Shown here piece by piece: positions 1 through 14,842 of a DNA stretch of 32,000 bases. The notes below the pieces were generated by a model. That model worked only from the letters and a program-made list of their open reading frames with translations. It was not told the DNA's origin and made no database searches. Within the stretch, counting starts at the first letter, position 1. Each line of letters begins with the position of its first letter. Source of the stretch: Candidatus Saccharimonadota bacterium (GTDB taxonomy: Bacteria > Patescibacteriota > Saccharimonadia > Saccharimonadales > Saccharimonadaceae); NCBI RefSeq assembly GCF_025273655.1, contig NZ_CP045921.1:1020001-1052000 (forward strand), written 5' to 3'. The position numbers were made by a program, and so were the translations under genes.

Positions 1-2315
1 CGGAATGACTTGAGTAGTACGATTCCGCTAGCTTCTTTATCACCAAAGAGCGACAGAGAATCATTGGTGGCCTTCTCTAGGTTACGGAAAGTAACAATGT
101 TGCCAAATGTCTTAATTGAATTTAGAATTCGGTTGGTTCGTGAATAGGCCTGGAGTAGCCCATGCATTCGCAAGTTCTTGTCTATCCAGAGTGTATTTAA
201 AGTTGTGGCATCAAAGCCTGTCAGGAACATGTTCACTACAATGAGCAGATCAATCTCGCGGTTCTTCATACGCAAACTGACATCTTTGTAGTAATTCTGG
301 AACTTATCGGATGATGTATCGTAGTTTGTACCGAACATTTGGTTGTAATCTTTTATCGCAGCTTCGAGGAAGTCGCGTGAGTTTTTGTCTAGACCATCTG
401 TATTGTCGGAGTTTTCGTCCTCGAGCCCATCCATTTCATCATCGACTTCATTAGCACCGTAACTGAATATCGTGGCTATCTTTAATTTCTTTAACTCTGG
501 TACATCTGCTTGTTGCTTGTTGAACTCTGTATAGTACAGCTTTGCAACATCGATAGAGCTGACGGCAAATATGGAGTTAAACCCGCTTAGTCGAATCTTT
601 TGCTTGATTTCTTCAACGGCCGAACGGTCTTTTGCCGATGCGGCTTCATGGACGCTTGCTAAAGCGGTGAATGCGTACGGCTTACTGTTGCGCTTAGTCT
701 TTTGATCAAAGTGATCACGAATATATTGTGTGACATTTGAGATGCGTTCCGGCGCAGCCAAGGCTTTTTCGCGGTCAATGTCACGTACCTGTGAGTCATC
801 GACATCGTCAGCCTCTTTTATGGTTCGGATGTAGTCAATGCGAAAAGGCAGTACGTTTTTGTCAGTGATAGCATCGACTATCGTGTACGTATGTAGCTTT
901 TCGCCAAAGGCCTGTTCGGTCGTTTTTAGATCAACACGACCACCACTAGAAGAGTTTTTAGCGAAGATAGGGGTACCCGTAAAACCAAAGAGGTGGTAGT
1001 TTTTGAAGCTGGTTGTGACTGCGTGGTGCATATCTCCGAACTGTGATCGGTGACACTCATCAAAGATGATTATGACGTGACCATCAAATACTTTGTGTCC
1101 TTCGTTCTTCTTTATGAACTTATCTAGTTTTTGAATGGTTGTGATTATGATTCTAGCATTGTCGTTTTCAAGTTGTTTGGTAAGTTTGGCAGTGCTCGTA
1201 TTGCTATTAGCCGCGCCTTTCTCAAACTTGTCATACTCCTTCATGGTTTGATAGTCGAGGTCTTTACGGTCGACAACGAATAGTACTTTATCTACGGATG
1301 ATAATTTACTGGCAAGTTGAGCTGTCTTGAAGCTAGTCAACGTTTTGCCCGATCCAGTGGTATGCCAAATGTATCCGCCAGCTTCGATGGTGCCTAGTTT
1401 TTTATAGTTCGTTGAAACTTCAACCCGATTCAATATTCGCTCAGTTGCAACGATCTGGTAGGGTCGCATTGCAAGCAGTAATCGGTCGCTGGTAAACACG
1501 CAGTATTTTGTTAGGACGTTTAAGATCGCATGTTTAGCAAAGAACGTCTGACCAAAGTCCATAAGATCAAAAATAGGCTTGTTATTTGCATCTGCCCACC
1601 AGCTCGTAAACTCAAAACTGTTGCTGGTTTTCTTTGTTCGTTTAGCACGAGTCTCACTAGCCTCTTTGATGTGCTGGAACCGTGTAGTGTTGCTGTAGTA
1701 TTTTGTGTACGTTCCGTTGCTGATAACAAATAGCTGTACATATTCGTATAGTCCACTATCCGCCCAGAAGCTATCACGCTGATAACGGTTAATCTGATTG
1801 AAGGCTTCTTGCAGAGCCACACCTCGACGCTTCAGCTCAACATGCACGAGTGGCAAGCCATTTACGAGAATCGTGACATCATAGCGGTTAGCCCGTGCAC
1901 CGTCCACTTCGTATTGGTTAATTACTTGGAGGCTATTATTGTGAATGTTTTTCTTATCTATAAGATATATATTGCGCTTGAATTGACCGTGTTCGTCGTA
2001 CAGATTCTTGACATGGTCTTCCTGAATGGTCGCCGTTTTGGTTTCAATGGTGCTGTTCGGGTTAGCAATATGTTCATAAAAAAACTGCTTCCATTCACTA
2101 TCACTAAACTGGTAGCTGTTAAGCTTCTCTAGCTGAGTACGTAGATTGTCTGTGAGGTCTGTCGAGCTGGTGATGGGTAAGTAATCATAGGCTTGAGCCT
2201 GTAATAACTCTACAAATGCTTTTTCTAAATCCGCTTCACTCTGGTAATTAGTGGCACGGGTTTTTGCAGGAGTAAATTCACCTACAACAGTGCTGTTGGA
2301 ATTTTCTGCCACCAT
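1..2315 (-). CDS. hsdR: Type I restriction endonuclease R subunit (HsdR), N-terminal ~771 codons; the 3' end lies beyond the left window edge
   Basis: Absent from the ORF track because there is no stop codon in the window. Hand translation of the reverse strand from ATG 2315-2313 stays open to base 1 (MVAENSNSTVVGEF...). Nuclease-like motif RYDVTILVNGLPLVHVELKRRG; helicase motif I GYIWHTTGSGKTLTSF; motif II IIFDECHRSQFG; motif VI LLQAYSRTNRI. It begins 11 nt after the hsdS stop on the same strand. Confidence 0.9.
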   Translation of the reverse strand, partial: MVAENSNSTVVGEFTPAKTRATNYQSEADLEKAFVELLQAQAYDYLPITSSTDLTDNLRTQLEKLNSYQFSDSEWKQFFYEHIANPNSTIETKTATIQEDHVKNLYDEHGQFKRNIYLIDKKNIHNNSLQVINQYEVDGARANRYDVTILVNGLPLVHVELKRRGVALQEAFNQINRYQRDSFWADSGLYEYVQLFVISNGTYTKYYSNTTRFQHIKEASETRAKRTKKTSNSFEFTSWWADANNKPIFDLMDFGQTFFAKHAILNVLTKYCVFTSDRLLLAMRPYQIVATERILNRVEVSTNYKKLGTIEAGGYIWHTTGSGKTLTSFKTAQLASKLSSVDKVLFVVDRKDLDYQTMKEYDKFEKGAANSNTSTAKLTKQLENDNARIIITTIQKLDKFIKKNEGHKVFDGHVIIIFDECHRSQFGDMHHAVTTSFKNYHLFGFTGTPIFAKNSSSGGRVDLKTTEQAFGEKLHTYTIVDAITDKNVLPFRIDYIRTIKEADDVDDSQVRDIDREKALAAPERISNVTQYIRDHFDQKTKRNSKPYAFTALASVHEAASAKDRSAVEEIKQKIRLSGFNSIFAVSSIDVAKLYYTEFNKQQADVPELKKLKIATIFSYGANEVDDEMDGLEDENSDNTDGLDKNSRDFLEAAIKDYNQMFGTNYDTSSDKFQNYYKDVSLRMKNREIDLLIVVNMFLTGFDATTLNTLWIDKNLRMHGLLQAYSRTNRILNSIKTFGNIVTFRNLEKATNDSLSLFGDKEASGIVLLKSF

Positions 2316-2326
2316 ACTGTACTTAT

Positions 2327-3520
2327 TCACGCTGTAGCCTCCTGAAATGTGAGTAGTTTGGTTCGGTAATAGTCGTATTGCTGACGACGTGCTTTGATTT
2401 CGGCAGGTAGGCCTTCGGTCATTCCATTAACAAGAGAATCAAAATTATCTAGAATATTCACTATCTTATCTTGCTCCTCAATAGAAGGTATAGGCACTTT
2501 TATTTTTGCCATAACATTACTCATTAGCTTCGGGTTTCCCATACCTGCGCTTACATGAGGCTTGGTCAATAACTGAAGTGCGTAAAAAAGAAAGCGCGTA
2601 CTTAAATTATCGGCTTTAACTTGGAGTAAACCGCAAACATTCGTGATACTAAACTTCTCGTTATTATGATAGAAAACGGAACCTGCGTTAGCACCGTCGG
2701 TCGTCCATGTTATAGACTCGAGGTCATAATCGTATGTTTTTATTTTTCCAAAGACTCCGTTATTGGCAGTCTGAGAAGAATACACAGGATAGTCCCCTGA
2801 ATTTTCCGTCAAATAATCCTTAGACATGACACGCCCCCGTGAAATATTGCAAACCTCTCCCAAAGTTAGCCATCTGACTCTCTCTCTCTGCTCGTCAAAC
2901 GTCAGTAGCTGATTTCGGTAGTATTCGTACTGCTTCCGTCTAGCTTCCAGCTCCGCTTCCAGCTCCGCTTCCAATTGTGTAAACTTATCCAGAATTTGTA
3001 CAATCTCTTTTTGCACTTCAATAGGGGGAATTGGAATCTTCATATCAAGCACTTTTGCCATGCTTGGATGCTGTATGCCTGATCCACGATAGAACGATTG
3101 AATTGTTCGTAGATTACTCAACATAAAGTAATAAAGATATTTATTGTCCAAATAGTTTTTGTCGAGTGATGTAGCAATACGATTATCCGCTGTAACGAAT
3201 TTTCCGTTGTAATACTGGACTGTAGCACGACCACCCCATGGAATTGATATTATCTCTCCTTCAGAGATGTTTTTGCCCGCCAATTCTTCGGTCGTATACC
3301 CATAAACTTCACCGCCCGTAGACAGTAACTTAACGTCACCACCTTCAACTGCTAGTTTTCTTAAAGCACTTGCTAGAAGATAGGAATACTTGTAAGTTTT
3401 GGGCTGTTTTTTATTATCAACGGCGTTGAATTTTTTATCCCAAGCAGTGACTTCCCAAATGTGCTTAAACTGCACTCCGTTTGGGCAAAGCTCAGCAATT
3501 AATTGATCGATTTTACCCAT
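2327..3520 (-). CDS. hsdS: Type I R-M specificity subunit (HsdS) with two target-recognition domains
   Basis: ORF 2327..3586. I place the start at the internal ATG 3520 (MGKIDQLIAELCPNGV...), which overlaps the hsdM stop as ATGGGTAA. The two variable halves are each followed by a conserved helix: ...EIVQILDKFTQLEAELEAELEARRKQYEYYRNQLLTF and ...QDKIVNILDNFDSLV...AEIKARRQQYDYYRTKLLTF. Confidence 0.9.
   Translation of the reverse strand: MGKIDQLIAELCPNGVQFKHIWEVTAWDKKFNAVDNKKQPKTYKYSYLLASALRKLAVEGGDVKLLSTGGEVYGYTTEELAGKNISEGEIISIPWGGRATVQYYNGKFVTADNRIATSLDKNYLDNKYLYYFMLSNLRTIQSFYRGSGIQHPSMAKVLDMKIPIPPIEVQKEIVQILDKFTQLEAELEAELEARRKQYEYYRNQLLTFDEQRERVRWLTLGEVCNISRGRVMSKDYLTENSGDYPVYSSQTANNGVFGKIKTYDYDLESITWTTDGANAGSVFYHNNEKFSITNVCGLLQVKADNLSTRFLFYALQLLTKPHVSAGMGNPKLMSNVMAKIKVPIPSIEEQDKIVNILDNFDSLVNGMTEGLPAEIKARRQQYDYYRTKLLTFQEATA
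2878..2889 (-). repeat. (CT)6/(AG)6 dinucleotide tract inside hsdS, just after the central helix
   Basis: The plus strand reads ctctctctctct at 2878-2889. The coding strand reads GAG CAG AGA GAG AGA GTC (EQRERV). Confidence 0.85.
2943..2973 (-). repeat. In-frame 12-bp tandem repeat (2.6 copies) in the central conserved helix of hsdS, encoding (LEAE)n
   Basis: The plus strand reads gcttccagctcc gcttccagctcc gcttcca. On the coding strand this is CAATTG GAAGCGGAGCTG GAAGCGGAGCTG GAAGCT = QLEAELEAELEA. Confidence 0.9.
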
Positions 3521-5096
3521 TCTTAGAACCCTCGATACTAGATACGATTTCATCAATCTGAGTACGTAGTATTGACTGCTTAGCAACTATCTCTTTGATA
3601 TTCGTATTGAGTTCAGCGATATTGACGAACTCCGTCATGTCCTTACCTTCAACGTAGCTGCTGACCGCAAGGTTGTAGTCATTCTCGGAAATCTCGCTAT
3701 TTGGGACAAGTCTTCCAAAATGTTCAACATCTTCGCGATTAGTGAATGCTTCAAGAATTTTATCTTGGTTAGTTTGACCGAGCTTGTTTTTGTTACCACC
3801 TCGCACAAATTCGGCCGAGGCATCGATGAATAAAGTGGAGTTATCTTTCTTGCTCTTCTTGAGAACCACAATACATGTCGAGATAGTTGTACCAAAAAAT
3901 AGATCAGGAGGTAACTGAATGACTGCATCTACAAAGTTGTTATCAACAAGATATTTACGGATCTTTGCTTCAGCACCGCCTCGGTACAACACTCCAGGGA
4001 ATTCAACAATCGCAGCCGTACCACTAGTCGAAAGCCAGTTAAGAATATGAAGCGTGAACGCTAGGTCGGCTTTGCTCTTCGGGGCAAGAACTCCTGCTGG
4101 AGAAAAACGAGGATCATTGATTAGTAATGGATTTGCATCACCCTCCCAGTTAATAGAGTAAGGTGGATTCGAGACGATGGCATCGAAGGGTTCGTCATCC
4201 CAGTGGGCTGGATCGGTCAGTGTATCTCCATGAGCTATGCTGAACTTTTCATAATTAATGTCGTGTAGATACATGTTGATACGGCAAAGGTTGTAGGTGG
4301 TGAGGTTGATCTCTTGTCCATAAAATCCTTGTCGAACATTCTCCTTACCCAATACCTTTGCGAACTTTAGCAGTAGTGAACCTGAGCCGCAGGCTGGGTC
4401 ATATACCTTGTTCACTTCTTTCTTGCCAACCACAGTGATACGAGCTAACAACTCACTGACTTCCTGAGGCGTGAAGAACTCACCACCAGACTTACCCGCC
4501 GATGACGCGTACATGGTCATGAGGTATTCATAAGCATCACCGAATGCGTCGATTGTATTGTCTTCGTAACGACCAACTTCAAGGCTTCCTATAGCATCAA
4601 GTAGTTTAACGAGGCGCTCGTTGCGCTTAGCAACTGTCTGGCCGAGCTTGCTGCTATTTACATCGAGATCATCGAAAAGACCCTTTATATCGTCTTCGCT
4701 ATCAGCACCTTTGGCAGAGTTCTCGATATTGCGGAAGATTCCCGAAAGAATTTCGTTAAGGTTATCCTCTTCTTTTGCTCTCTTGCGGACATTTTCAAAC
4801 AGCTCGCTTGGCAGTATGTAGAAGCCTTTTTCAGCTACCGTGTCCTTGCGACCAAACTCGGCGGCATCATCGCTTAGGCTGGCATAGTCAAAGTCGGCAG
4901 CACCTGTTCTGCGCTCTTCGGCATTAATGTAATTTGACAAGTTTTCGGATATAAAACGATAAAACAGTATGCCTAAAACATACTGTTTGAAGTCCCATCC
5001 ATCTACTGATCCCCTCAAGTCGTTCGCAATCTTCCAAATCGTGCTGTGTAGCCGGGCTCGTTCTTGCTCTTTTTTAGTGTCTGTTGTGGTTGTCAT
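3513..5096 (-). CDS. hsdM: Type I R-M N6-adenine DNA methyltransferase subunit (HsdM)
   Basis: ORF 3513..5108. HsdM N-terminal domain RLHSTIWKIANDLRGSVDGWDFKQYVLGILFYRFISENL; AdoMet motif VYDPACGSGSLL; catalytic motif IVSNPPYS. The start is ambiguous: ATG 5108 has GAGG 4 nt upstream, and ATG 5096 (MTTTTDTKKEQ) has TATAAT 10 nt upstream. I chose 5096. Confidence 0.9.
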   Translation of the reverse strand: MTTTTDTKKEQERARLHSTIWKIANDLRGSVDGWDFKQYVLGILFYRFISENLSNYINAEERRTGAADFDYASLSDDAAEFGRKDTVAEKGFYILPSELFENVRKRAKEEDNLNEILSGIFRNIENSAKGADSEDDIKGLFDDLDVNSSKLGQTVAKRNERLVKLLDAIGSLEVGRYEDNTIDAFGDAYEYLMTMYASSAGKSGGEFFTPQEVSELLARITVVGKKEVNKVYDPACGSGSLLLKFAKVLGKENVRQGFYGQEINLTTYNLCRINMYLHDINYEKFSIAHGDTLTDPAHWDDEPFDAIVSNPPYSINWEGDANPLLINDPRFSPAGVLAPKSKADLAFTLHILNWLSTSGTAAIVEFPGVLYRGGAEAKIRKYLVDNNFVDAVIQLPPDLFFGTTISTCIVVLKKSKKDNSTLFIDASAEFVRGGNKNKLGQTNQDKILEAFTNREDVEHFGRLVPNSEISENDYNLAVSSYVEGKDMTEFVNIAELNTNIKEIVAKQSILRTQIDEIVSSIEGSKNG

Positions 5097-5145
5097 ATTA
5101 CACAACATTATACCTCAAAAACAGATGTAATAACACTGTTAGCAG

Positions 5146-5151
5146 TATAAT
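5146..5151 (+). promoter_or_regulatory. -10-like TATAAT hexamer abutting ATG 5152 and lying 6 nt before the second ATG (5158)
   Basis: The sequence is gcagTATAATatggctATGgca with no Shine-Dalgarno. The geometry fits a leaderless start at 5158. Confidence 0.4.
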
Positions 5152-5892
5152 ATGGCTATGGCAAAAACTAAGTCAGATAATTATTGGGAACCACATGCAA
5201 GAATCCTTGAATCTATGCCTCGTTTCCAAGCTGCTGTATCTGATGTTCGTAAGCGGCTAGGTATTCCTGAAACGGGCATTCCTTATGACGAACGGGCTGA
5301 GTGGTTTGCCGATTTCTACCGCAATGCCGATGAAGATACCGCAAAGCGATACGGAGGTGCATATGGATATGAGTTGCTGCCTCCGAATAAGGAATTGCTT
5401 GACGAGCTTGATAACCTAAGGCTTGAGTTCAATCTCGATCCACGCTGGCTTCATCCGCTTTTCAATTACATATTTTCTGCCGATAAATCATTAGAACCGC
5501 CATCACAAAAAAGTGCTTGGCCGTCGCCAAGAATGAATGATGTGCGTTTACCGAAAGAGCAACAGCGAGTCACTAGCTTGAGTATTCGTATCGAAAAGGA
5601 TACCACGATCCATGATATCGAAGATATTTGGGATGATATTCGGAAGTATCAAGCGTATATGGATGCAGACATTCCATCTCGGCGTGACCCAATCCAATTA
5701 GAGACTGTTGATCGTTATCGCAACATTATTAAGCTACGTGCAGATGGACTGAAATACCAAGAGATAGCAGAAAAGTACCCAGATAAATTCAACTCGGCAG
5801 AAGATGTCAGGAGTTTTAAGAATAAGCAGGAAGCCCGATTCAAAAAGCGTACCTCGTTACGTCACCTACCGAGCCTATGGTGGCATAAATAG
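5152..5892 (+). CDS. Hypothetical protein (246 aa); the C-terminal third is helix-turn-helix-like, so it may be a phage late-operon regulator
   Basis: ORF track. I recognise no family. The C-terminus DRYRNIIKLRADGLKYQEIAEKYPDKFNSAEDVRSF looks like a sigma-region-4/HTH segment. It is the first gene of the plus-strand operon preceding the methylase and terminase. The start may be 5158. Confidence 0.5.
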   Translation: MAMAKTKSDNYWEPHARILESMPRFQAAVSDVRKRLGIPETGIPYDERAEWFADFYRNADEDTAKRYGGAYGYELLPPNKELLDELDNLRLEFNLDPRWLHPLFNYIFSADKSLEPPSQKSAWPSPRMNDVRLPKEQQRVTSLSIRIEKDTTIHDIEDIWDDIRKYQAYMDADIPSRRDPIQLETVDRYRNIIKLRADGLKYQEIAEKYPDKFNSAEDVRSFKNKQEARFKKRTSLRHLPSLWWHK

Positions 5893-5929
5893 CTTAGGGT
5901 CATGATATTTCCAGAATAAGGAGATAATC

Positions 5930-7252
5930 ATGACAAATAACAACTTAGAGGTTACATATCAAAAAGTAAAAGAATTAAACCCTGCGCCATACAATCCACG
6001 CAAGTGGAGCGAGGAAGCAATTGCCCAACTTACTAATAGCATAAAAAGCTTCGGTATAGTTGACCCGATTTTAGTGAACAGCTCAGCAAGTCGCAAGAAC
6101 GTAGTTATAGGTGGGCACTTCAGGCTCAAGGTTGCGAAAGATCTTGGCATTAAAGAAGTACCCGTTGTATATGTAGATATCCCCGATATTGAACGAGAAA
6201 AAGAACTAAACGTACGGCTTAATAAAAATCTTGGTGACTGGGATTATGAACTGTTAGTAGAGTTCGATGAATCATTACTTAGCACTATCGGCTTTGATAG
6301 TGAGGAGATTGATGCAATTTTTGACCTTGTTGTTGATGAACCTGAAACATTCGATCTCGAAAAAGAGCTGAAGAAACTGGATATCAGTAAAATCACTGTG
6401 CAAAAAGGCGATGTCTATCAGCTTGGTGATTCTCGGCTTATGTGTGGCGATTCTACAGTGGAGGCGGACTTCGACAAGCTTATGAACGGCGAACAAGCCG
6501 ATATGTGCATGACAGATCCGCCTTACATTCTCGATTACTTACATGCCAAGCGTGGCGGTAAGTCCGTTACTGGGTTCGGGGCTAAACGCAATCGTCGTTA
6601 TCTTGAAACAGACGTCCTGCCCGATAACTTTACCGAGCTTTGGATGGCAAATGTCGCCAAGTACGCCAAGCCAGACTACTCCATTATTGTGTATGAAAAT
6701 TGGAAAAATCTGCGTGTGATTTGGGCAGAGATGGAAAAATACTGGAAAGTAAAAAATATGATCGTGTGGCATTTACCCAATCGACATCAAGGCTTCGCTG
6801 CTAAATACAAGTTCTTTAGTAAACATGATATTGCGATGGTTGGAGCTTCTGGCGACGTGGAGTATAACCACGACGAAGAACCTGATGGCCTGCAAGAAGA
6901 ATATGAAACAGCATTGTATGCAATTCGTGGAAAGCCTCAGTGGGAGGGCTATGAGGGCGGTAAAAAGTACCAACCAACTGACTTTATAAGCTACATGGCT
7001 AGTGACGAAAAGCATTCTGGTCAAGGTGTCATCTTTGGCACAAAACCAATTGAGATACTCGTACCATACATCAAAGTTCTTACTAAACGTGGCGACTTGG
7101 TAGTAGAACCGTTCTGCGGCAGTGGCTCGACGCTCATTGCTAGTACAAAGTTAAAACGCCGATGCAACATCATGGAGAAAAGCCCTACCTATGCCGAAGT
7201 GGCTCTGTATCGTTGGGAGAAGCTGACTGGCCAAAAGCGAGTAAAGCTATGA
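5930..7252 (+). CDS. ParB-like nuclease (ParB/Srx) domain fused to a beta-class N6-adenine/N4-cytosine DNA methyltransferase
   Basis: AAGGAG ribosome-binding site 8 nt upstream. N-terminus NPAPYNPRKWSEEAIAQLTNSIKSFGIVDPILVN...IGGHFRLKVAKDLGIKEVPVVYV (ParBc). Motif IV MCMTDPPYILDY precedes motif I VVEPFCGSGSTLIAS, which is the beta-class order. Confidence 0.85.
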   Translation: MTNNNLEVTYQKVKELNPAPYNPRKWSEEAIAQLTNSIKSFGIVDPILVNSSASRKNVVIGGHFRLKVAKDLGIKEVPVVYVDIPDIEREKELNVRLNKNLGDWDYELLVEFDESLLSTIGFDSEEIDAIFDLVVDEPETFDLEKELKKLDISKITVQKGDVYQLGDSRLMCGDSTVEADFDKLMNGEQADMCMTDPPYILDYLHAKRGGKSVTGFGAKRNRRYLETDVLPDNFTELWMANVAKYAKPDYSIIVYENWKNLRVIWAEMEKYWKVKNMIVWHLPNRHQGFAAKYKFFSKHDIAMVGASGDVEYNHDEEPDGLQEEYETALYAIRGKPQWEGYEGGKKYQPTDFISYMASDEKHSGQGVIFGTKPIEILVPYIKVLTKRGDLVVEPFCGSGSTLIASTKLKRRCNIMEKSPTYAEVALYRWEKLTGQKRVKL

Positions 7253-7659
7253 GCCGAAACCTTGCTGTCGATAAAAAGAAGCTACTTGAGAAGCTTCGAA
7301 AAACACCAATTGTTGAAGTTGCGTGTAAGCAAACGGGCGTACCTCGCAGTACCTATTACCGCTGGCGTAAAGACGATGAAGATTTTGCAAGCGAATGCGA
7401 TGAAGCTATCGAACATAGTGCAGGCCTTATAAATGATATGGCAGAAAGCCAGTTGATATCTGCCATTAAAGACAAGAATATGTCGGCCATTTTCTTTTGG
7501 TTAAAGCACCACCACAAGTCTTATAAAACTCGCATCGAGGTAAACGCCAAGCTACAAACCATTCAACAGGAATTAACACCTGAGCAAACCGAAGTTGTAT
7601 CACGCGCGCTTCAACTTGCAGGATTAACAACCGAAGATGAAACTGATGAAACAAGATAA
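7249..7659 (+). CDS. HTH protein resembling a small terminase subunit (phBC6A51-type HTH)
   Basis: The true start is ATG 7249, overlapping the methylase stop (ATGA). MSRNLAVDKKKLLEKLRKTPIVEVACKQTGVPRSTYYRWRKDDEDFASECDEAIE. It sits immediately upstream of, and overlaps, the large terminase gene. Confidence 0.65.
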   Translation: MSRNLAVDKKKLLEKLRKTPIVEVACKQTGVPRSTYYRWRKDDEDFASECDEAIEHSAGLINDMAESQLISAIKDKNMSAIFFWLKHHHKSYKTRIEVNAKLQTIQQELTPEQTEVVSRALQLAGLTTEDETDETR

Positions 7660-9154
7660 CCTACAGAAAAAACTTTTTGCCGACCATAAGGTTCGTGCGG
7701 AAGTCACATCACAAAGCCATCAGTGGTTCTTTTCTACTTATTTTTCGAATTACTTAACTCATGCCACTGCTGACCTGCACCGTGACCTATTTTCAATCAC
7801 TGAAGACGAGTCACTGCCGCTGGCCGTCATTGTGGCATTTCGAGGTTCGGCAAAATCCACGATATTAACAATGAGCTACCCAATATGGGCAGTGGTCGGA
7901 CGACAACAAAAGAAATTCGTGCTGATAGCCAGTCAGACGCAGTACCAAGCACGAGTACATCTCACTAACATTAAGCGCGAGCTTGAAAGCAATGAGCTAC
8001 TGGCCAATGATATGGGCCCGTTCATAGAGCAACGTGAAGAATGGGGTTCGACATCACTTTACATACCAAAGTATAACGCTAGAATCACGGCAATTAGTAC
8101 CGAACAAAGTGTGCGAGGTATTCGACATGGTGCTTTTCGGCCTGATTTAATCATCGCCGATGATGTCGAAGATATGGCGTCGGTAAAAACTCGTGAAGGG
8201 CGCAATAAAACTTTTGATTGGTATACGAGTGAGATCATTCCAGCTGGCGATACCTACACGAAACGTATTGCGGTCGGCAATCTCCTTCACGAAGATTCAT
8301 TGCTTATGAGGCTTAAAGAGCGTATCGAAAACAATGAAATTGATGGCATATACCGCGAATGGCCTATTGTACGATCGGGTACAAGTTTATGGCCGGGTAA
8401 ATACCCTGACAAGGTAGCGATTAACAATCTAAGGCGCAATGTCGGCAACAAGATTGCCTGGGAACGTGAATACATGCTCCGCATAATTCCTGACGAAGAT
8501 CAGGTTATCGATGCCAAATGGATGCAGTACTATGATGAGCTACCAGAAAAGACTGAAAGCAACGAATATATCAATTCGTTCTTGTCGGTTGATCTTGCAA
8601 TATCTCAGAGCGCAACCGCTGACTATACAGCGATAATCATTATTCATGTATTTGGATTCAAGCCCGAGAATCGTCGCTACTACATTGATAAGAAGTTTAT
8701 TAATAAAAAGATAACTCACCTAGCAACGCTCGATACCATTGCTTCGTTGTATCAAGCCGTTAATGCAGATTCAAAGCAAGTACCGATAGTGCTAGTGGAG
8801 CAAGTTCAGTACCAAGCAGCAGTAATTGAACAGCTCAACGACCGTGAGATTAAGTCGAAAGGTATCAAAATCCATAATGACAAACGCGCACGGCTCCAGT
8901 TGGTGAGTTCGCTGTTTGAGCAAGGTATGGTGTATTTCCCAAAGGATCGTGCGATTGCACCAATCATACAGCAGCTCGTCGGTTTTGGCGTGGAAAAGCA
9001 TGATGATCTAGCCGATGCGGCATCGATGGGGCTGAACTATGTACAAACCAATGTGAAATGGGAAGTTGTTTTTGGATTCGGCTTTTTAGGGGGCGATGAC
9101 GACGAGATTCATCACTTCTACGGAATTAAATATTTAGACGAGAAAAAGAACTAG
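7637..9154 (+). CDS. terL: Phage terminase large subunit (ATPase + RNase H-like nuclease)
   Basis: Walker A-like VAFRGSAKSTILT; Walker B/catalytic PDLIIADDVEDM; nuclease-domain acidic motifs FLSVDLAIS and EKHDDLADAASMG. 505 aa. The start overlaps the upstream gene by 23 nt. Confidence 0.85.
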   Translation: MKLMKQDNLQKKLFADHKVRAEVTSQSHQWFFSTYFSNYLTHATADLHRDLFSITEDESLPLAVIVAFRGSAKSTILTMSYPIWAVVGRQQKKFVLIASQTQYQARVHLTNIKRELESNELLANDMGPFIEQREEWGSTSLYIPKYNARITAISTEQSVRGIRHGAFRPDLIIADDVEDMASVKTREGRNKTFDWYTSEIIPAGDTYTKRIAVGNLLHEDSLLMRLKERIENNEIDGIYREWPIVRSGTSLWPGKYPDKVAINNLRRNVGNKIAWEREYMLRIIPDEDQVIDAKWMQYYDELPEKTESNEYINSFLSVDLAISQSATADYTAIIIIHVFGFKPENRRYYIDKKFINKKITHLATLDTIASLYQAVNADSKQVPIVLVEQVQYQAAVIEQLNDREIKSKGIKIHNDKRARLQLVSSLFEQGMVYFPKDRAIAPIIQQLVGFGVEKHDDLADAASMGLNYVQTNVKWEVVFGFGFLGGDDDEIHHFYGIKYLDEKKN

Positions 9155-9194
9155 CTTTAATAAACCATTGCGGTACCTTTGCTTTGAAAGGAAT

Positions 9195-9512
9195 ATGATG
9201 AACGAATTAGATAAGAAACGAACAGGAACAAGCTTCAAAGGGTATCTGTATGCACGGTATGACCAGTTACTGCCGACATTCGGAGAGCCAAGGCAACCAA
9301 TTCATGCAGATAATAAAATTGATGTTGAATGGATTATTGATACACCACATGGTGTGGCCACTATATATAATTACAAGGATGGTAAAGCATATCTTGGTGA
9401 TTCAGGGCTTAACCCAGAAGAGATTTACGAGTGGCATGTTGGTGGTAAGACCAGTGAAGTGTATGGCTGGATTAAGGAGCGACTGCAAAGGAACATTATC
9501 GCTGGTTTTTAG
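9195..9512 (+). CDS. Hypothetical protein (105 aa)
   Basis: ORF 9168..9512 begins at a TTG. I prefer ATG 9195, preceded by AAAGGA. I recognise no family. Its stop (TAG 9510-9512) overlaps the stop of the convergent GIY-YIG gene. Confidence 0.5.
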   Translation: MMNELDKKRTGTSFKGYLYARYDQLLPTFGEPRQPIHADNKIDVEWIIDTPHGVATIYNYKDGKAYLGDSGLNPEEIYEWHVGGKTSEVYGWIKERLQRNIIAGF

Positions 9513-10339
9513 CCCTTACGCATGACCTCGTCCATTGTTTGACCAGATTCATCTTTCCATGTCACCCACGCATTTATATTGTGTCCCGTTGCAAAACCAC
9601 CTGCATGATTAGGGCTCTTGAATGCCACATTTTCTGTCAGCTCGACTGTATCACCAAGATCACGGCCATACTTTTCGAAGATCTCTTCTCTCTCGGCAAG
9701 TGATTTAGACCATTTAGTCGCCCAGCTTGGTGAGTGAGATTTATCAATGATTGAACCTTGTAATACGACAAATTTATCGCCTCTAAATTGTGCACGTGCT
9801 TCTGTTTTCTTTGATTTGCAATACCAAACGTCTTCTTTAATGTCTGGACTCGACAGAATATCATAACCAAGTGAAGTAAGGATGAGTTGGGTGTCGTCTA
9901 AAATTTTCTGAAGAATATGTAACTTAAATTCATGAACATTGTTACGAATTGGAACTGTCTTATTCTCAATTGTCATACTTCCCGATTGAGCACGCTCTAC
10001 GGCTAGTGATTCTAAATACTTAACGTCGCTCTTCTCAAGGCTATTGGTTGTAGAAACAATTGCGATGGCAACATCCCAAAACTGCTTGTTTTGATCATGA
10101 TTCTTAACACGATGAAAGAAGTTTTCACTTTCGCCAATGTATCCAAGAGAGTCACTGCTGCTTACCAAGAAGTATATCGATGGTCGCAGTAGTTCTTCTC
10201 TCACTTTCGCGTTTTTCAACTGTAGCCGTGGAATGACAAATGCTTTGATTGAACTATCGCTCAGTTCTATTACACGTATTCCTTCGAGTGTGCCATCGGG
10301 TAAATATGTCTGTATTAGTCTAGGTTGAGGGTTGTTCAT
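9509..10339 (-). CDS. GIY-YIG nuclease family protein with a C-terminal DUF4357-like domain
   Basis: N-terminal half SIYFLVSS...LGYIGESENFFHRVKNHDQNKQFWD...DVKYLESLAVERA (GIY...YIG...R...H...E pattern). C-terminal half RGDKFVVLQGS...VAFKSPNHAGGFATGHNINAWVTWKDESGQT matches the DUF4357 pattern as I recall it. Confidence 0.75.
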   Translation of the reverse strand: MNNPQPRLIQTYLPDGTLEGIRVIELSDSSIKAFVIPRLQLKNAKVREELLRPSIYFLVSSSDSLGYIGESENFFHRVKNHDQNKQFWDVAIAIVSTTNSLEKSDVKYLESLAVERAQSGSMTIENKTVPIRNNVHEFKLHILQKILDDTQLILTSLGYDILSSPDIKEDVWYCKSKKTEARAQFRGDKFVVLQGSIIDKSHSPSWATKWSKSLAEREEIFEKYGRDLGDTVELTENVAFKSPNHAGGFATGHNINAWVTWKDESGQTMDEVMRKG

Positions 10340-10346
10340 TATCTCT

Positions 10347-10352
10347 ATTATA
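10347..10352 (-). promoter_or_regulatory. -10 TATAAT hexamer 7 nt upstream of the GIY-YIG ATG (leaderless geometry)
   Basis: The minus strand reads gcaTATAATagagataATGaac with no Shine-Dalgarno. Confidence 0.4.
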
Positions 10353-10395
10353 TGCCTAGACTTAATCTAATAACAGCGGTACCTTGTACCTTGCA

Positions 10396-11667
10396 ATGGA
10401 AAGCAAACCTAGCCTTAAATACTGCTTATACGCTCGCAAATCGAGTGAATCTGACGAGCGACAGGCCATGTCGATTGATTCGCAGTTGAATGAGATGCGA
10501 GCATTGGCAGAAAATGAGGGATTACAGATAGTCTGCGAGCTTCAGGAGAGTCACTCTGCTAAAGATTCTGGCAAAAGACCCGTATACAACAAATTACTTA
10601 AGGGCTTAGCAAGCGAAGAATATAATGCCGTCCTCACATGGGCACCCGATCGACTAAGTAGGAATGCTGGCGACCTTGGATCGGTTGTTGACCTCATGGA
10701 TCAAGGCAAGCTACTGCATATCCGTACTTACTCGCAGACGTTCACAAATAACCCGAACGAGAAGTTCTTACTAATGATTCTATGTTCGCAAGCCAAACTT
10801 GAGAACGATAACAAAAGTATTAACGTCAAACGAGGCATTAGAAACAAATGCGAGATGGGTTGGCGACCAGGCGTTGCACCGCTTGGGTACATGAATCGAG
10901 CATTCGCAGGTGTTAACGACATAATCCTCGATCCTGATAGATCGGAACTAATTATCGAAGCTTTTCAAAAAGCTGGGTACGAGCGTTGGAGCGGTCGTAG
11001 GATAAAAGCATGGCTTGATGAGCAAGGCTTTACTAATCGTTCAGGAAAACCGATTAGTGTGAGTCAAATATTAGTAATACTCAGTACGCCATTCTACTAT
11101 GGCAAATTCCAATACCCTGAAGCACCAGATGCACCATGGTACACAGGTGCCCATAAGCCACTTATATCTAAAGAGTTGTTCGATCTCGTGCAAGAAACGA
11201 GAGGTGTCAACAAGGGTGTGTGGGGATCAAAAACATTTGCCTTCAGGGGTATGCTCAAATGTGGGCAGTGCGATGCGGACATCACCGCACAAGATAAGTT
11301 TAAGCTGCTAAAAAGTGGTGATACAAAGCGATTCGTCTACTACAACTGTACTCGTCGTAAAGATCCTGATTGCAAAGAGAAATACGTCAATGAGGAGAAG
11401 CTTTGTGAGCTATTGCAGGCCTTCATCGAGCAACATCACCAAAAAATGGATATTGAAGAAAAGCTACGTGCAAAAGTAGATAAACATTTTTATGTCACCA
11501 AAACTCTGCTAAACCATTACAAGATCGAGCGAGATCTTGATAACCCATTCGTTGAGTATTCAAGATACATACTTGCGAGCGGTACGGAGGGCGATAGGAT
11601 TAGATTCGCCTCTGGGATTAAAACAAAGCTCCAAATACGGCACGGTGAACTTGAGTTCTACGCATAA
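10396..11667 (+). CDS. Large serine recombinase (resolvase/invertase catalytic domain + recombinase domain + zinc ribbon)
   Basis: YCLYARKSSESDERQAMSIDSQ (catalytic Ser region); VLTWAPDRLSRNAGD; recombinase domain GWRPGVAPLGY; zinc ribbon CGQCDADITAQ...YYNCTRRKDPDC. The start is taken at ATG 10396 rather than TTG 10384. Confidence 0.9.
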   Translation: MESKPSLKYCLYARKSSESDERQAMSIDSQLNEMRALAENEGLQIVCELQESHSAKDSGKRPVYNKLLKGLASEEYNAVLTWAPDRLSRNAGDLGSVVDLMDQGKLLHIRTYSQTFTNNPNEKFLLMILCSQAKLENDNKSINVKRGIRNKCEMGWRPGVAPLGYMNRAFAGVNDIILDPDRSELIIEAFQKAGYERWSGRRIKAWLDEQGFTNRSGKPISVSQILVILSTPFYYGKFQYPEAPDAPWYTGAHKPLISKELFDLVQETRGVNKGVWGSKTFAFRGMLKCGQCDADITAQDKFKLLKSGDTKRFVYYNCTRRKDPDCKEKYVNEEKLCELLQAFIEQHHQKMDIEEKLRAKVDKHFYVTKTLLNHYKIERDLDNPFVEYSRYILASGTEGDRIRFASGIKTKLQIRHGELEFYA

Positions 11668-11722
11668 GCGCGTATACTTTTGTATTTTGTTCTATTTAGG
11701 TAGTTAGCGCACCTTGACTTAC

Positions 11723-12010
11723 TTAGAAATCGAACAAATCTCCTAAGAATGATTCTTTGCGCTTTTTGCGTGGATAACTTTGATTAGAGCCGCTCTGATT
11801 ACCGTGCTTGTCATATTGCTGCGATGGATAGTTTGGTTCCTGGTAAGGTTGCTGTGCCTGAGCTGCTGGAGCCTGAGCAGTACCTCGTTCAATGATTTTG
11901 TCTAATTCACCACGATCAAGCCATACGCCCCGACACTTTGGGCAATAATCGATTTCGACACCTTGTCGGTCAGTCATAACTAAATCTGCTTTATCTATTG
12001 GACATTGCAT
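11723..12010 (-). CDS. TFIIB-type zinc-ribbon protein with a Q/P-rich tail
   Basis: MQCPIDKADLVMTDRQGVEIDYCPKCRGVWLDRGELDKII (CPx...CPxC ribbon), then a low-complexity tail ending in LGDLFDF. AAGGGAGAA ribosome-binding site and a TATAAT upstream. Confidence 0.7.
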   Translation of the reverse strand: MQCPIDKADLVMTDRQGVEIDYCPKCRGVWLDRGELDKIIERGTAQAPAAQAQQPYQEPNYPSQQYDKHGNQSGSNQSYPRKKRKESFLGDLFDF

Positions 12011-12022
12011 ATTCTTTCTCCC

Positions 12023-13930: not shown

Positions 13931-14215
13931 CTAACTATTTCCGCCTGTTATAAATTGTAGTGGGTTAGCAATAACCTGCTTCCACAAAGCATTAATAAAA
14001 TCGAGAGCATAGTTCCACAGCGATGTGATGATATTTCCGATATTTTGCCCAATGTTAGTATCGGCTTGGCCAAGCAGTGCATTAATAATAGCTACGAAGA
14101 TAACTCCTACAATTACTAATATCACAAGCAATATAATACCGACGAGCAGTAAGGCAATGAATAATTTCCTTTTATTCTTGCCTCTAAACATATCTAACTT
14201 ATATCCGTGGCCCAT
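13931..14215 (-). CDS. Small membrane protein (94 aa), hypothetical
   Basis: A long hydrophobic stretch (LFIALLLVGIILLVILVIVGVIFVAIINALL). AAAGGGGA ribosome-binding site. Its stop abuts the ATPase start (TAGATG), so the two are co-transcribed between arsR and the ATPase. Confidence 0.5.
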   Translation of the reverse strand: MGHGYKLDMFRGKNKRKLFIALLLVGIILLVILVIVGVIFVAIINALLGQADTNIGQNIGNIITSLWNYALDFINALWKQVIANPLQFITGGNS

Positions 14216-14233
14216 TACTGTCCCCTTTTGATT

Positions 14234-14560
14234 TTATTCATGTTCGCCACCCCTAATGTGATCGGCTTGGGTAAAAGCATGTTCGATCAGGTGTAATACG
14301 TGTTCGTTTTCTGCCTTATAGAATATTTTTGTACCCTCGCGCCGCATGCTTACCATATGCGATATCCGTAGTTTGGCAAGATGCTGCGAAACAACGGATG
14401 GTTGCATACCCACTTCATCCGCAAGCTCTCCAACTGAATGTTCGCCGTGCAGTAATGACCACAGTATTTTAAGTCGTGTCGGGTCGCTAACTAGCTTAAA
14501 CATAGCAGTAGCTACAACGATTTGTTCATTAGAAATTTCTTTGCGTATATGCGCAGACAT
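14234..14560 (-). CDS. ArsR/SmtB-family metalloregulatory transcriptional repressor
   Basis: Winged HTH: DPTRLKILWSLLHGEHSVGELADEVGMQPSVVSQHLAKLRISHMVSMRREGTKIFY. It is the first gene of the metal ATPase operon. Confidence 0.85.
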   Translation of the reverse strand: MSAHIRKEISNEQIVVATAMFKLVSDPTRLKILWSLLHGEHSVGELADEVGMQPSVVSQHLAKLRISHMVSMRREGTKIFYKAENEHVLHLIEHAFTQADHIRGGEHE

Positions 14561-14566
14561 GCATAT

Positions 14567-14626: not shown

Positions 14627-14705
14627 GCAGGTCTAGGGAACGGGTCAGCTTTTTGACTGCTTGCTCCCTCCAGGGGGGACGGGCTGGGCTAGAACTAAGT
14701 AACAG
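14627..14705 (-). repeat. Decayed partial copy of the tRNA-Asn 3' half plus its downstream flank (possible att/integration scar)
   Basis: The 11-mer gcaggtctagg occurs exactly at 14627 and 14802. It is followed in both copies by the same order of blocks: aac, ggtc, gc, tttt, ctgcttg, gac, tgggct, gaac, taacag. In the second copy (14802-14886) those blocks run into the T-arm and anticodon loop of the tRNA. Alignment was done by eye, at roughly 60% identity with gaps. Confidence 0.4.
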
Positions 14706-14707
14706 AG

Positions 14708-14741
14708 GTGAAATGAAAGAACCGCCATTTCTGACGGTTCC
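14708..14741 (-). terminator. Candidate intrinsic terminator downstream of tRNA-Asn
   Basis: The minus-strand RNA would read GGAACCG-UCAGAAAUGG-CGGUUC followed by UUUCAUUUCA. That is a 6-7 bp GC-containing stem (14719-14724 / 14735-14740) plus a U-rich tail. Confidence 0.4.
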
Positions 14742-14781
14742 AACATTTCGTACTTTGTAATCAGCACTTTTTTTCTTGGCG

Positions 14782-14842
14782 GACCAAGGAGAGAAGTTGA
14801 CGCAGGTCTAGGAACTAGGTCTGCACTTTTCTCTGCTTGGTC
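14782..14842. other. 61-nt imperfect hairpin directly abutting the 3' CCA of tRNA-Asn
   Basis: gaccaag/cttggtc (7 bp), agagaa/ttctct (6 bp) and gcaggtctag/ctaggtctgc (10 positions; two are G.U in plus sense but A.C in minus sense), with a 3-nt loop. Preceded on the plus strand by a T8 run. Confidence 0.5.

Follow-up and report, generated by a model that had tools for sequence, protein, structure and literature searches.

What are the enzymes of phage DNA packaging doing in a stretch of bacterial DNA in which no phage head genes are detected? The question is raised by the window, the whole stretch of 32,000 nucleotides of Candidatus Saccharibacteria (TM7) that was analysed. The ten genes listed by an earlier note, made from the sequence alone, are each present where it had placed them (Pfam, PHROG and PADLOC matches), and its claim of a headless arrangement is borne out, since portal, capsid, tail, lysis and replication genes were not detected in window 1-14.8 kb. 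The unit is not confined to 1-11722, as had been proposed: beyond 11722 it also takes in genes for a Zn-ribbon protein and a P-type ATPase, a 94-aa ORF and ArsR, reaching the 3' end of a tRNA-Asn gene at 14843. The greater part of an integrated mobile island occupies window 1-14842, its left end lying beyond the window start, and this island is a member of a large, undescribed family. Its features are the following.

1..2315 (coding 3-2315), minus strand: hsdR, Type IC restriction subunit, left-arm cargo, truncated by the window start
2327..3586, minus strand: hsdS specificity subunit, cargo (Pfam Methylase_S, two TRDs, 1.6e-53)
3513..5108, minus strand: hsdM methyltransferase subunit, cargo (Pfam N6_Mtase 1e-112, HsdM_N)
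5109..5151, no strand: divergent intergenic region of 43 bp (sequence read directly)
5152..5892, plus strand: 246-aa protein opening the backbone operon; its C-terminus is a three-helix, HTH-like element
5930..7252, plus strand: ParB_N::N6/N4 DNA methyltransferase fusion (ParB::MTase), backbone (Pfam 4e-13 and 3e-20; phrog_498 5e-84)
7249..7659, plus strand: TerS-like small terminase subunit, 136 aa, HTH, backbone (phrog_4044 1.3e-10)
7637..9154, plus strand: TerL large terminase subunit, 505 aa, backbone (phrog_38 1.5e-81; Terminase_6C)
9198..9512, plus strand: 104-aa protein, function unassigned, semi-conserved accessory gene
9509..10339, minus strand: GIY-YIG/DUF4357 protein, cargo between TerL and recombinase (PADLOC PDLC04925 3.5e-69)
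10396..11667, plus strand: large serine recombinase (integrase), backbone (Resolvase 1e-20, Recombinase 2.5e-12, Zn_ribbon_recom 3e-7)
11723..14560, minus strand: metal-efflux cargo between recombinase and attR (Pfam labels), made up of the next four genes
11723-12010, minus strand: Zn-ribbon protein (Pfam label)
12023-13930, minus strand: heavy-metal P-type ATPase (Pfam label)
13931-14215, minus strand: 94-aa membrane ORF
14234-14560, minus strand: ArsR/HTH_5 regulator (Pfam label)
14627..14700, no strand: degenerate inner att-arm copy with a tRNA-Asn-like 3' fragment (sequence read)
14700..14842, no strand: right-end arm (P arm of attR), containing a hairpin (14718-14741) and paired AGGTCT repeats (14802-14824)
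14843..14917, minus strand: tRNA-Asn(GTT) (ARAGORN)

The ParB::MTase, TerS and TerL genes are translationally coupled: the TerS start overlaps the MTase stop in the ATGA already read at 7249-7252, and the 23-nt TerS/TerL overlap claimed with it follows from the coordinates. The ParB::MTase carries a DPPY motif. TerS matches four further terminase-small-subunit PHROGs (phrog_1482, 4102, 24579 and 2538; E <= 1.8e-4) and bears the Pfam labels HTH_Tnp_1_2 / Sf6_terminase. In TerL, both Walker motifs (A, AFRGSAKST; B, DLIIADDVED) are intact, as are the acidic residues of the nuclease, and K73, D175/D176, D319, E388 and D456/D457/D460 are invariant in relatives down to 55% identity; its Walker A/B region aligns with PDB chain 8dgc_E, a deposition named 'Terminase, large subunit' (E 4e-4), and the HDD region does so only by a stretch below threshold. 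The 246-aa protein gave zero Pfam, PHROG or PADLOC matches, and no PDB fold match for its model (AF2 pLDDT 82.6); its 34 homolog clusters are all hypothetical, and a weak collinear profile match (E 0.001) relates it to family c26, found in the same slot elsewhere. Regulator and recombination directionality factor are its candidate roles. Its ATG is immediately preceded by a TATAAT (5146-5151), and the 55-bp gap from hsdM given by the earlier note holds from the second hsdM ATG (5096) but shrinks to 43 bp from the first (5108). Downstream, the recombinase shows the N-terminal YARKSSESDERQ motif and matches the phrog_95 integrase (6e-59). The 104-aa gene directly follows TerL in one sub-family; its product has 85 homolog clusters and a model (AF2 pLDDT 92) whose fold relatives are uncharacterised phage proteins only (BFVD E 1e-9, TM 0.77-0.88), with no significant PDB match.

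About 140 related loci, nearly all from Candidatus Saccharibacteria, were found in public data: 37 loci with the backbone in the genome set, 22 in IMG/VR (TerL at least 43% identical) together with two shorter partial matches (L066, L068), and 80 in the metagenome set, drawn from at least 512 matching stretches. Each was inspected over only about 10 kb on either side of TerL. It is not the exact ten-gene set that recurs but a backbone of a small first gene, ParB::MTase, TerS and TerL, followed by a large serine recombinase. Of the 110 loci whose upstream sequence is long enough, 107 have the ParB::MTase immediately 5' of TerS/TerL; a serine recombinase on the same strand follows TerL in 86 loci, and the cargo stretch between TerL and recombinase varies from 0 to 9.6 kb. 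The backbone is under strong purifying selection, with dN/dS of 0.01-0.10 (about 0.05 for the 246-aa gene, 0.01-0.03 for ParB_N::N6_N4_Mtase, 0.02-0.10 for TerS and 0.014-0.066 for TerL), and its headless form is kept while TerL identity drops from 96% to 43%. Homologs of the portal and capsid proteins encoded after TerL by the closest true phages (whose TerL is 31-40% identical) were found in none of the ~140 loci. Portal and capsid genes right after terL, or decayed and separated orthologs, were the findings named beforehand as speaking against a satellite or defence island; neither occurred, and that reading, rather than a prophage, is supported. Full-length relatives with head genes appear only when TerL identity has fallen to 31-40%, in phages with the order ParB - TerS-like - TerL - portal (phrog_2662 1e-97) - protease/MCP. 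A ParB::MTase also precedes terS-terL-portal in Streptococcus phage Javan117, and 276 phage records span at least 80% of the MTase. The 'viral' labels of the IMG/VR loci may simply reflect the terminase gene.

Three cargo slots can be distinguished, the left arm, the TerL-to-recombinase interval and the stretch from recombinase to attR, and nearly all of their contents are anti-phage defence (R-M types I, IIG, ISP-like and IV, CBASS, PDC-S14, DUF4238 and others); relatives with both ends delimited measure 9-19 kb and hold backbone and defence-like genes only. The Type IC R-M operon, the PDC-S14 gene and the metal-efflux cassette of the window are such variable cargo, so that the R-M operon and the GIY-YIG nuclease, previously taken as parts of one system, are both interchangeable. 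The hsdR product, of which the N-terminal 771 aa lie in the window and ~270 aa off its start (orthologs in four loci, L012, L024, L027 and L044, have 1038-1041 aa), contains HSDR_N, SWI2_SNF2, ResIII and T1R_D3 domains, and matches PADLOC REase_I (1.5e-286); the Type IC label of the earlier note stands because it matches the EcoR124I/II HsdR structures (E 1e-216). The hsdS ORF reaches 3586, gene callers placing its start near 3520 (397 aa), and its product is only 34-38% identical to that of relatives, though their hsdM and hsdR are 81-94% identical. The gene at 9509-10339 is the PADLOC candidate defence gene PDC-S14, its DUF4357 and GIY-YIG matches each lying below the Pfam cut-off, and it occupies the TerL-recombinase slot only in the window, L038, L043, L044 and L079. 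The metal-efflux cassette is common to the window and L007 only; a P-type ATPase relative (33% identical) lies between TerL and recombinase in L040. A divergent CI-like S24 repressor stands upstream of the operon in 20 of 82 loci, none of them in the sub-family of the window. The claim that the window has no repressor holds for the CI/S24 type, but it does encode two regulators, ArsR within the island (14234-14560) and, outside it, a LexA_DNA_bind protein (17064-17438). An HNH gene adjoins the ParB::MTase-TerS-TerL triad in several loci.

Members of the family integrate at a tRNA gene, whose 3' end is the insertion point and faces the element; for the window's island, the 3' end of tRNA-Asn serves as target and marks the right boundary. 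GC is 0.44-0.49 in the metal-efflux region and 0.52-0.54 in the 4 kb beyond tRNA-Asn, and the right-end arm, which terminates at the core TGGCTCC, is conserved by alignment beside tRNA-Asn in the window, L007, L009, L013, L021 and L036. The 11-mer GCAGGTCTAGG occurs twice, at 14627 and 14802; the inner att-arm copy is the trace of an earlier or tandem insertion, of which L007 has a clearer counterpart at 18575-18745. The search for att sites and excision that had been suggested was fruitful: attL and attR were mapped, and two attP junctions, right end fused to left end, are present in assemblies. The first, at position 12376 of L041/L025, joins the right end (19033) and the left end (3900) of L028 with the shared core TGGCTG of a tRNA-Gln 3' end; the second, at 5404 of the IMG/VR contig L068, fuses the arm found at the tRNA-Asn of L013, the same right-end arm as in the window, to a left-end arm. 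Circles need not be their source: tandem copies, which do occur in the family as arrays, could give rise to both. The attL motif recurs in 10 loci, with the breaks of three contigs lying less than 50 bp away. Past the recombinase, the first tRNA encountered has minus-strand orientation in 35 of 74 loci and plus-strand orientation in none; five or more tRNA targets are used, and some MAGs hold two copies of the element.

The model we propose, to which we incline on balance, is that of a phage satellite whose own terminase packs the excised island into helper-phage capsids. Mobile elements normally keep constant the machinery of their own life cycle, and because the constant genes, integrase aside, are packaging genes only, the triad would be just that, captured from the packaging module of a tailed phage and serving for transfer. 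The operon would be guarded by the CI/LexA-like S24 repressor in about a quarter of the members; upon induction, the recombinase would excise the element, possibly with the first operon gene as directionality factor. TerS would then recognise a site of the element, and TerL would cut the DNA, dock on a foreign portal and pump the DNA into procapsids, which we infer to be supplied by a helper phage, either co-resident or infecting; the island would therefore spread as a satellite, interfering with its helper by capsid competition and by its defence cargo. Several points count against this model. The sizes of the elements (~6 to 19 kb) reveal no obvious capsid-size constraint, packaging needs a concatemeric substrate and no replication module was detected in any delimited element, packaging alone does not explain the strict retention of the ParB::MTase, the S24 repressor is missing from the sub-family to which the window belongs, and we know of no satellite with its own TerL yet without a portal.

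No account of a headless terminase and defence island was found in the literature, in keeping with the earlier statement that no described system has such a gene set. Like PICIs/SaPIs, the present elements are site-specific islands of ~10-20 kb with an integrase at one end, their own TerS, variable accessory or defence cargo and, in part of the family, a divergent repressor, and they are devoid of virion structural and lysis genes. They differ by a full TerL and a ParB::MTase, by a large serine instead of a tyrosine integrase, by their host phylum, Patescibacteria, and by a helper dependence that is here putative; no primase/replicase-ori module was detected in the family, nor any recognisable gene for capsid size or TerS interference (Cpm, Ppi, Rpp). 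P4-like satellites and PICIs likewise combine a conserved backbone with hotspots that swap unrelated defence systems, but the present backbone genes are entirely different and there are three slots, one beyond the integrase. SCC elements target rlmH and not tRNA 3' ends, probably spread through transduction or conjugation with no packaging enzyme that they encode themselves and, to our knowledge, have no terminase genes. One report describes large-serine-recombinase islands such as SCCmec as mobilising defence genes in tandem (PMC11470126), and the present family resembles them as serine-recombinase chromosomal cassettes that carry defence genes and can be arrayed in tandem at a single att site. 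A TerS and TerL of their own are also found in the cf-PICIs, which have an HNH gene as do some members here, and in the Streptomyces satellites MulchRoom/MiniFlayer, which likewise lack obvious replicases; all of these always have genes for a portal, a protease/scaffold, a major capsid protein and head-tail adaptors as well (PMC10690885), which are absent from all present loci. Temperate tailed phages (Javan117 and the uncultured L064-L067) share the order ParB(-MTase) - TerS - TerL, with phrog_38 and the intact TerL motifs, but continue with portal and capsid where the present family has defence cargo and integrase.

The triad could instead be an anti-phage or addiction module, which we judge unlikely although it is the strongest competitor of the satellite model. 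The terminase would act as a decoy, either seizing or cutting the DNA of an invading phage or obstructing phage packaging, or the triad would be R-M-like, the MTase marking self DNA and TerS/TerL cutting unmarked DNA; the island would move only by recombinase excision followed by natural transformation, Saccharibacteria being naturally competent. The MTase is indeed inseparable from TerS/TerL and coupled to them in translation as in an R-M operon, the surroundings are saturated with defence genes, and neither a replication module nor a helper phage was identified. However, the triad is never exchangeable cargo but invariant in order and orientation and always with the recombinase, no PADLOC model matches TerS or TerL, ordinary phages have the same three genes before the portal for packaging, and the CI-like repressor and HNH gene adjoin the triad in some members as in phage late operons. 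It is more doubtful still that the locus belongs to a split, domesticated GTA-like system or to a prophage with head and tail genes elsewhere in the genome, independent of any helper. GTAs with scattered loci exist, the inspection reached only ~10 kb from TerL, and TerL appears clearly functional by its motifs and selection; but the module sits within discrete elements with mapped att sites, at polymorphic positions, in two copies in some MAGs and in tandem, and thus behaves as a selfish mobile element does, not as a fixed host locus. That a deletion in this lineage stripped an ordinary temperate phage of its genes for head, tail, lysis and replication is scarcely credible, even with phage-type backbone genes, a GC unlike the flank and integration beside a tRNA, given the constancy of the headless layout across the ~140 loci, the low dN/dS and the remoteness of head-bearing relatives, and the 'clean deletion remnant' of the earlier note is effectively excluded because att pairs bound complete headless elements of 9-19 kb and attP junctions exist.

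In conclusion, our observations emphasize an island that keeps the DNA-packaging enzymes of a phage while carrying swappable anti-phage defence genes, and which probably represents a kind of phage satellite not described before.

The Saccharibacteria stretch carries one copy of a discrete family of elements, bounded by a site-specific recombinase, which combine a selected backbone of packaging enzymes, free of capsid genes, with exchangeable defence cargo. The backbone comprises a ParB::methyltransferase (MTase) fusion, a TerS and a TerL, hereafter the triad, together with a large serine recombinase and a small first operon gene. The stretch belongs to a genome of Candidatus Saccharibacteria (TM7), and the nearest TerL loci are found in Saccharimonas, Microsaccharimonas and other Saccharimonadia MAGs. 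All the genes named in the earlier note are present, as confirmed by the ORF list, the translations and the Pfam, PHROG and PADLOC profile searches:

3-2315, minus strand: hsdR, cut at the window start, in a Type I R-M operon with hsdS and hsdM
Start of the plus-strand operon (5152-5892), plus strand: uncharacterised 246-aa protein
Second operon gene, plus strand: ParB_N::N6_N4_Mtase domain fusion
Third operon gene, plus strand: TerS-like HTH protein of 136 aa, its ATG overlapping the MTase stop
After TerS, plus strand: TerL (phrog_38, 1.5e-81; Terminase_6C)
9198-9512, plus strand, after TerL: uncharacterised 104-aa protein
After the 104-aa gene, minus strand, convergent: GIY-YIG/DUF4357 gene (PADLOC PDC-S14)
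After the GIY-YIG gene, plus strand: large serine recombinase with all three Pfam domains and the YARKSSESDERQ motif in its translation
Between recombinase and tRNA: Zn-ribbon gene, heavy-metal P-type ATPase, small membrane ORF, ArsR regulator
14843-14917, minus strand: tRNA-Asn, right of the element

The label 'Type IC' holds for the R-M operon, since HsdR matches the EcoR124I/II HsdR structures (2w00/4be7) with an E value of 1e-216; the HsdM and HsdS domains are present, and LEAE repeats lie in the central region of HsdS. The ATGA shared by the MTase stop and the TerS start is found at 7249-7252 as described, and the 55-bp gap reported between hsdM and the plus-strand operon applies only if hsdM starts at its second ATG, being otherwise 43 bp. 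The recombinase possesses the Resolvase catalytic, recombinase and zinc-ribbon domains (Pfam), and the GIY-YIG/DUF4357 protein is matched over its full length by the PADLOC profile PDC-S14 (PDLC04925, 3.5e-69), a family whose defence activity is itself only a candidate one. The reported absence of portal, capsid and lysis genes is confirmed by the PHROG and Pfam searches, which return no structural, lysis or replication gene in the element, and neither the window nor any of the delimited relatives shows a primase, helicase-primase or Rep domain in profile searches.

The AF2 model of the 246-aa protein is confident (pLDDT 82.6), and the protein has no match in Pfam, PHROGs or PADLOC and no PDB relative by fold. 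Four protein families occupy the first slot of the operon, namely this protein, c8, c26 and c64; comparison gives no link with c8 and a weak collinear profile match with c26 (E 0.001). Immediately before the first ATG of this gene stands a perfect TATAAT (5146-5151), and one gene call in a public contig starts at 5158, where there is a second ATG in frame; the mRNA may be translated without a leader, to judge from the sequence. The model of the 104-aa protein is also confident (pLDDT 92) and shows a compact alpha/beta fold, its relatives, all uncharacterised, being found in uncultured Caudovirales and in Streptomyces phage BRock (26-40% identity).

The unit does not end at 11722, where the earlier note had placed its limit: the metal-cassette genes continue up to the tRNA-Asn at 14843, and the extension follows from a step in GC content, from this tRNA and from the ordinary envelope-polysaccharide genes beyond it. 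GC is 0.40-0.49 over 1 to ~14.9 kb, 0.52-0.54 in the next 4 kb and 0.44-0.55 in the remainder of the window. The chromosomal polysaccharide cluster contains two neighbouring paralogs of a 336-aa NAD-dependent epimerase/dehydratase (23761-24771 and 24852-25862), and close by, at 17064-17438, a 124-aa protein whose sole domain is a LexA DNA-binding one overlaps a Wzy-like gene at its start. To the left, the copy in the window runs on past position 1. Searching for exact matches to the hsdM and TerL proteins retrieved three public contigs with this element, which is present in the samples SRR12142700 and SRR31609102; two of the contigs reach the R-M genes and break inside hsdS or hsdR, the third being a 2-kb fragment with TerS-TerL only. 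Between elements sharing hsdM/hsdR at 81-94% identity, hsdS (2327-3586) is 34-38% identical, and it is split in two ORFs in the related loci L013 (1105-2368) and L027 (4724-5948). The hsdS divergence and the contig breaks suggest specificity-domain swapping or population heterogeneity.

Relatives were gathered by TerL from GTDB genomes (37 loci), IMG/VR (30 loci) and JGI/ENA metagenomes (at least 512 matching stretches, 80 kept); ~10 kb on each side of TerL was inspected per locus, and the ORFs were called by a simple greedy rule, clustered and compared with the window. The exact-pattern extension of one IMG/VR contig (L043) yielded 243 new bases only. All loci whose TerL is 43-96% identical to the window's preserve the order ParB::MTase, TerS, TerL and its overlapping starts and stops, followed by 0-9.6 kb of cargo (median 1.2 kb) and then by the same-strand large serine recombinase. 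Of the 110 loci that extend far enough upstream, 107 have the ParB::MTase directly upstream of TerS/TerL; the recombinase lies downstream of TerL on the same strand in 86 loci, and homologs of the portal or of the protease/MCP of related phages occur in none of 140 loci, a total in which some loci are redundant between collections. It is the triad and the recombinase that recur without head genes, and not the ten-gene set; a fixed 'system' of R-M, terminase and GIY-YIG genes was rejected because only the triad and the recombinase co-vary. Some MAGs contain two copies of the element. One locus is binned in a Zixibacteria MAG (L010) and another in a Burkholderiaceae MAG (L033); as their TerL are 96% and 61% identical to Saccharibacteria copies, these are probably cases of mis-binning and not of cross-phylum spread.

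Pairwise dN/dS is 0.01-0.03 for the ParB::MTase, 0.02-0.10 for TerS, 0.014-0.066 for TerL, 0.02-0.075 for the recombinase and about 0.05 for the 246-aa protein, ratios which are rough since dS is close to saturation, and whose direction is unambiguous. In TerL, the Walker A lysine, the Walker B DD(V)E and the nuclease acidic residues D319, E388, D456, D457 and D460 are invariant.

The ends of the elements were mapped in relatives, where attL and attR denote the junctions with the chromosome and attP the right end joined to the left end. In the tRNA-Gln sub-family, the loci L041 and L025 are identical over 12,150 bp, and in L041 the recombinase and 100 bp downstream of it run directly into the sequence found at the left end of the integrated copy L028. 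The core TGGCTG is common to all three junctions, and L028 is thereby delimited as a 15.1-kb element:

attP, tRNA-Gln sub-family: CGCATC-TGGCTG-AGCATACAGG
attR, tRNA-Gln 3' end: CGCATC-TGGCTG-GGGCGGAGGGATTCGAACC
attL, tRNA-Gln sub-family: CTAAAT-TGGCTG-AGCATACAGG

The left-arm motif, TGGCTG AGCATACAGGTCTGGTAC ... ACAGGGGTA, places attL in ten loci (L007, L016, L017, L018, L022, L028, L030, L032, L034 and L042); three contigs terminate 0-50 bp from it, and it was not found in the more distant metagenome loci. Direct repeats of the tRNA were dropped as a mark of attL, having given a hit in L007 only (a 13-bp repeat with a degenerate tRNA fragment); sub-families other than that of L007 share a 6-7 bp core only. 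A search for terminal overlaps, the sign of a circular contig, found none; the joined ends, which exist in some populations, could represent circles or tandem copies, and tandem arrays are seen in L022, L029, L034 and L046/47.

In the tRNA-Asn sub-family, to which the window belongs, 140 bp flanking the 3' end of the tRNA are conserved in six loci and hold a hairpin with paired AGGTCT repeats (window 14802-14824). This arm recurs in the IMG/VR locus L068, fused at 5404 to a left arm, which constitutes a second attP junction. L007, the nearest relative sharing the metal cassette, shows its 13-bp repeat and degenerate tRNA-Asn fragment at 4313-4340 and an inner arm with a foreign tRNA fragment at 18575-18745, so that it is read as a 14.4-kb element followed by a 2.5-kb remnant; a clean 105-bp duplication (18575-18745 and 21120-21225) encloses this remnant, which has one 711-aa gene. 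The window contains a weaker inner remnant at 14627-14700, made of a degenerate att arm and a tRNA-like fragment, this degenerate att copy lying 180 bp inside the real junction. The tRNA-Asn site is a hot spot for insertion. Where the recombinase is complete (74 loci), the first tRNA met in the 6 kb downstream lies on the minus strand 35 times and never on the plus strand, which indicates that the family targets tRNA 3' ends (Asn 11, Ser 10, Gln 8, Tyr 3, and others). A site-specific integrase with its att sites is documented by the recombinase, the attL, attR and attP mapped in relatives and the 35:0 orientation. On a single 39-kb IMG/VR contig, L046 and L047 are two elements of a sub-family whose methylase is split in two ORFs, and in L046, L047, L040, L077 and L081 the operon is preceded, on the other strand, by a second serine recombinase, of 529-537 aa and unrelated to the first.

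Once delimited, the elements (L028, 15.1 kb; L022, 19.3 kb; L032, 14.9 kb; L007, 14.4 kb; L018, about 9 kb; L017, about 16.6 kb; L034, about 13.6 kb) contain only the backbone and an overwhelmingly defence-like cargo, besides a few unannotated ORFs of ~200 aa; none has a portal, protease, MCP or head-tail connector. The cargo, spread over three slots (left of the operon; from TerL to the recombinase; from the recombinase to attR), includes:

Type I R-M
MmeI-type IIG enzyme with a DEAD helicase and a T5orf172 protein
PLD-SNF2 helicase with an Eco57I-type methylase and a PD-(D/E)XK nuclease
GmrSD and PvuRts1I/SRA type IV enzymes
CBASS pair (SMODS and Cap15)
DUF4238, DUF4268, DUF3800 and RhuM
EEP nuclease, DUF4352 surface proteins and PDC-S14

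L022 unites three defence systems in one 19-kb element: a CBASS pair of SMODS nucleotidyltransferase and Cap15 receptor/effector in its left arm (144-5087), a PvuRts1I/SRA-type modification-dependent endonuclease between recombinase and attR (18237-19193), and a Type I R-M. A CI-like repressor with an S24 peptidase domain is divergent upstream of the operon in 20/82 loci (Pfam 7e-18; phrog_4 6e-22), and an HNH gene (Pfam 5e-7), absent from the window, lies upstream of the triad in at least six.

The gene order of true phages identifies the triad, as far as sequence can tell, as a recognisable phage packaging module split from its head genes. The IMG/VR loci L064-L067, real uncultured phages with a TerL 31-40% identical, possess a ParB-like gene, a small gene, TerL, a 766-aa portal/head-morphogenesis protein (phrog_2662, 1e-97) and then a 651-aa protease/major-capsid fusion; in Streptococcus phage Javan117, a ParB::MTase stands just before two small genes, terL, the portal and a minor capsid gene. 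Matches spanning 80% or more of the window ParB::MTase occur in 276 phage records. L064-L067 are the closest true-phage relatives of the element TerL and could be the ancestral or the helper lineage. A phmmer comparison set the 123 ORFs of L064-L072 (these four related phages, four other phage loci, and L068, itself an element) against 844 ORFs of element loci: from the phage loci only ParB and TerL matched, plus three marginal singletons (E 4.5e-6 to 1.7e-3), and from L068 its own backbone and flank genes. A head module suspected in L019/L020 was rejected, the genes downstream of TerL matching PHROGs of unknown function and not structural ones.

The model towards which we incline, with some reserve, is that of a phage satellite which, after excision, would package itself into helper procapsids by its own TerS/TerL. 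It is the most economical reading because a mobile element normally keeps invariant those genes that ensure its own spread, and because the only invariant genes besides the integrase amount to a complete terminase. Excision would come first, TerS/TerL would then load the element into the procapsids of a helper phage, some members of the family would be controlled by a CI/LexA-type repressor, and the first gene of the operon is a candidate for a directionality factor or an activator. Against this reading, no helper phage is identified, the elements have no replication module and no visible size constraint, and we know of no precedent for a satellite with TerL but without portal; it also leaves unexplained the strict retention of the MTase. 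A rival in which the triad would serve interference, or act in the manner of an R-M system, is in our judgement unlikely. A GTA-like system split over the genome, its capsid genes lying apart from the element, is more improbable still. Within ~10 kb on each side of TerL there are no structural genes, and the element is mobile. The 'clean deletion remnant' of the earlier note, or a defective prophage, is scarcely credible, decay being excluded by the recurrence, the intact ORFs, dN/dS of 0.01-0.10, the invariant TerL residues and a layout conserved down to 43% TerL identity.

Among known systems, the satellite we propose would work most like a PICI, and like a PICI it lacks virion structural and lysis genes (PHROG, Pfam; portal/MCP in 0/140 loci). 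It differs in having no replication module (primase/replicase and ori) and in encoding, besides TerS, its own intact TerL, whereas a PICI relies on that of the helper; PICI integrases are usually tyrosine recombinases. TerS and TerL, present in all element loci with HNH sometimes, are shared with cf-PICIs, and also with MulchRoom/MiniFlayer, but these always carry portal and capsid genes too (PMC10690885), whereas own portal, protease, MCP and connectors are absent from the element in all 140 loci. The behaviour of the cargo resembles the defence hotspots of P4-like satellites and the tandem, serine-recombinase-driven SCC cassettes (PMC11470126). In full-text literature searches, neither this architecture nor any Saccharibacteria satellite was found described; the TM7 prophage survey of Shaiber et al. 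discarded contigs with neither a viral hallmark nor a capsid-related gene.

We put forward more tentatively, as possible though somewhat doubtful, the wider proposal that these elements make up the first family of phage satellites in the Candidate Phyla Radiation (CPR) and a new architecture, a terminase holoenzyme with ParB::MTase and without capsid, portal or replication genes, which would steal whole helper procapsids and be the main shuffler of restriction, CBASS and other defence systems among the ultra-small Saccharibacteria. If the terminase serves transfer, the family fills a gap between the TerS-only PICIs and the capsid-forming ones, as a satellite able to bring its own packaging motor to a foreign capsid; if it serves interference, a packaging enzyme would have given rise to a new type of defence. 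With their att sites mapped at tRNA ends, the serine recombinases may serve as genetic tools in CPR bacteria. Saccharibacteria have genomes of ~1 Mb with few recognised mobile elements or prophages. The family, its ends, integration targets and cargo slots now being defined, gives them a concrete and abundant vehicle for the exchange of defence genes, found in at least 512 metagenome stretches and in several copies in some genomes.
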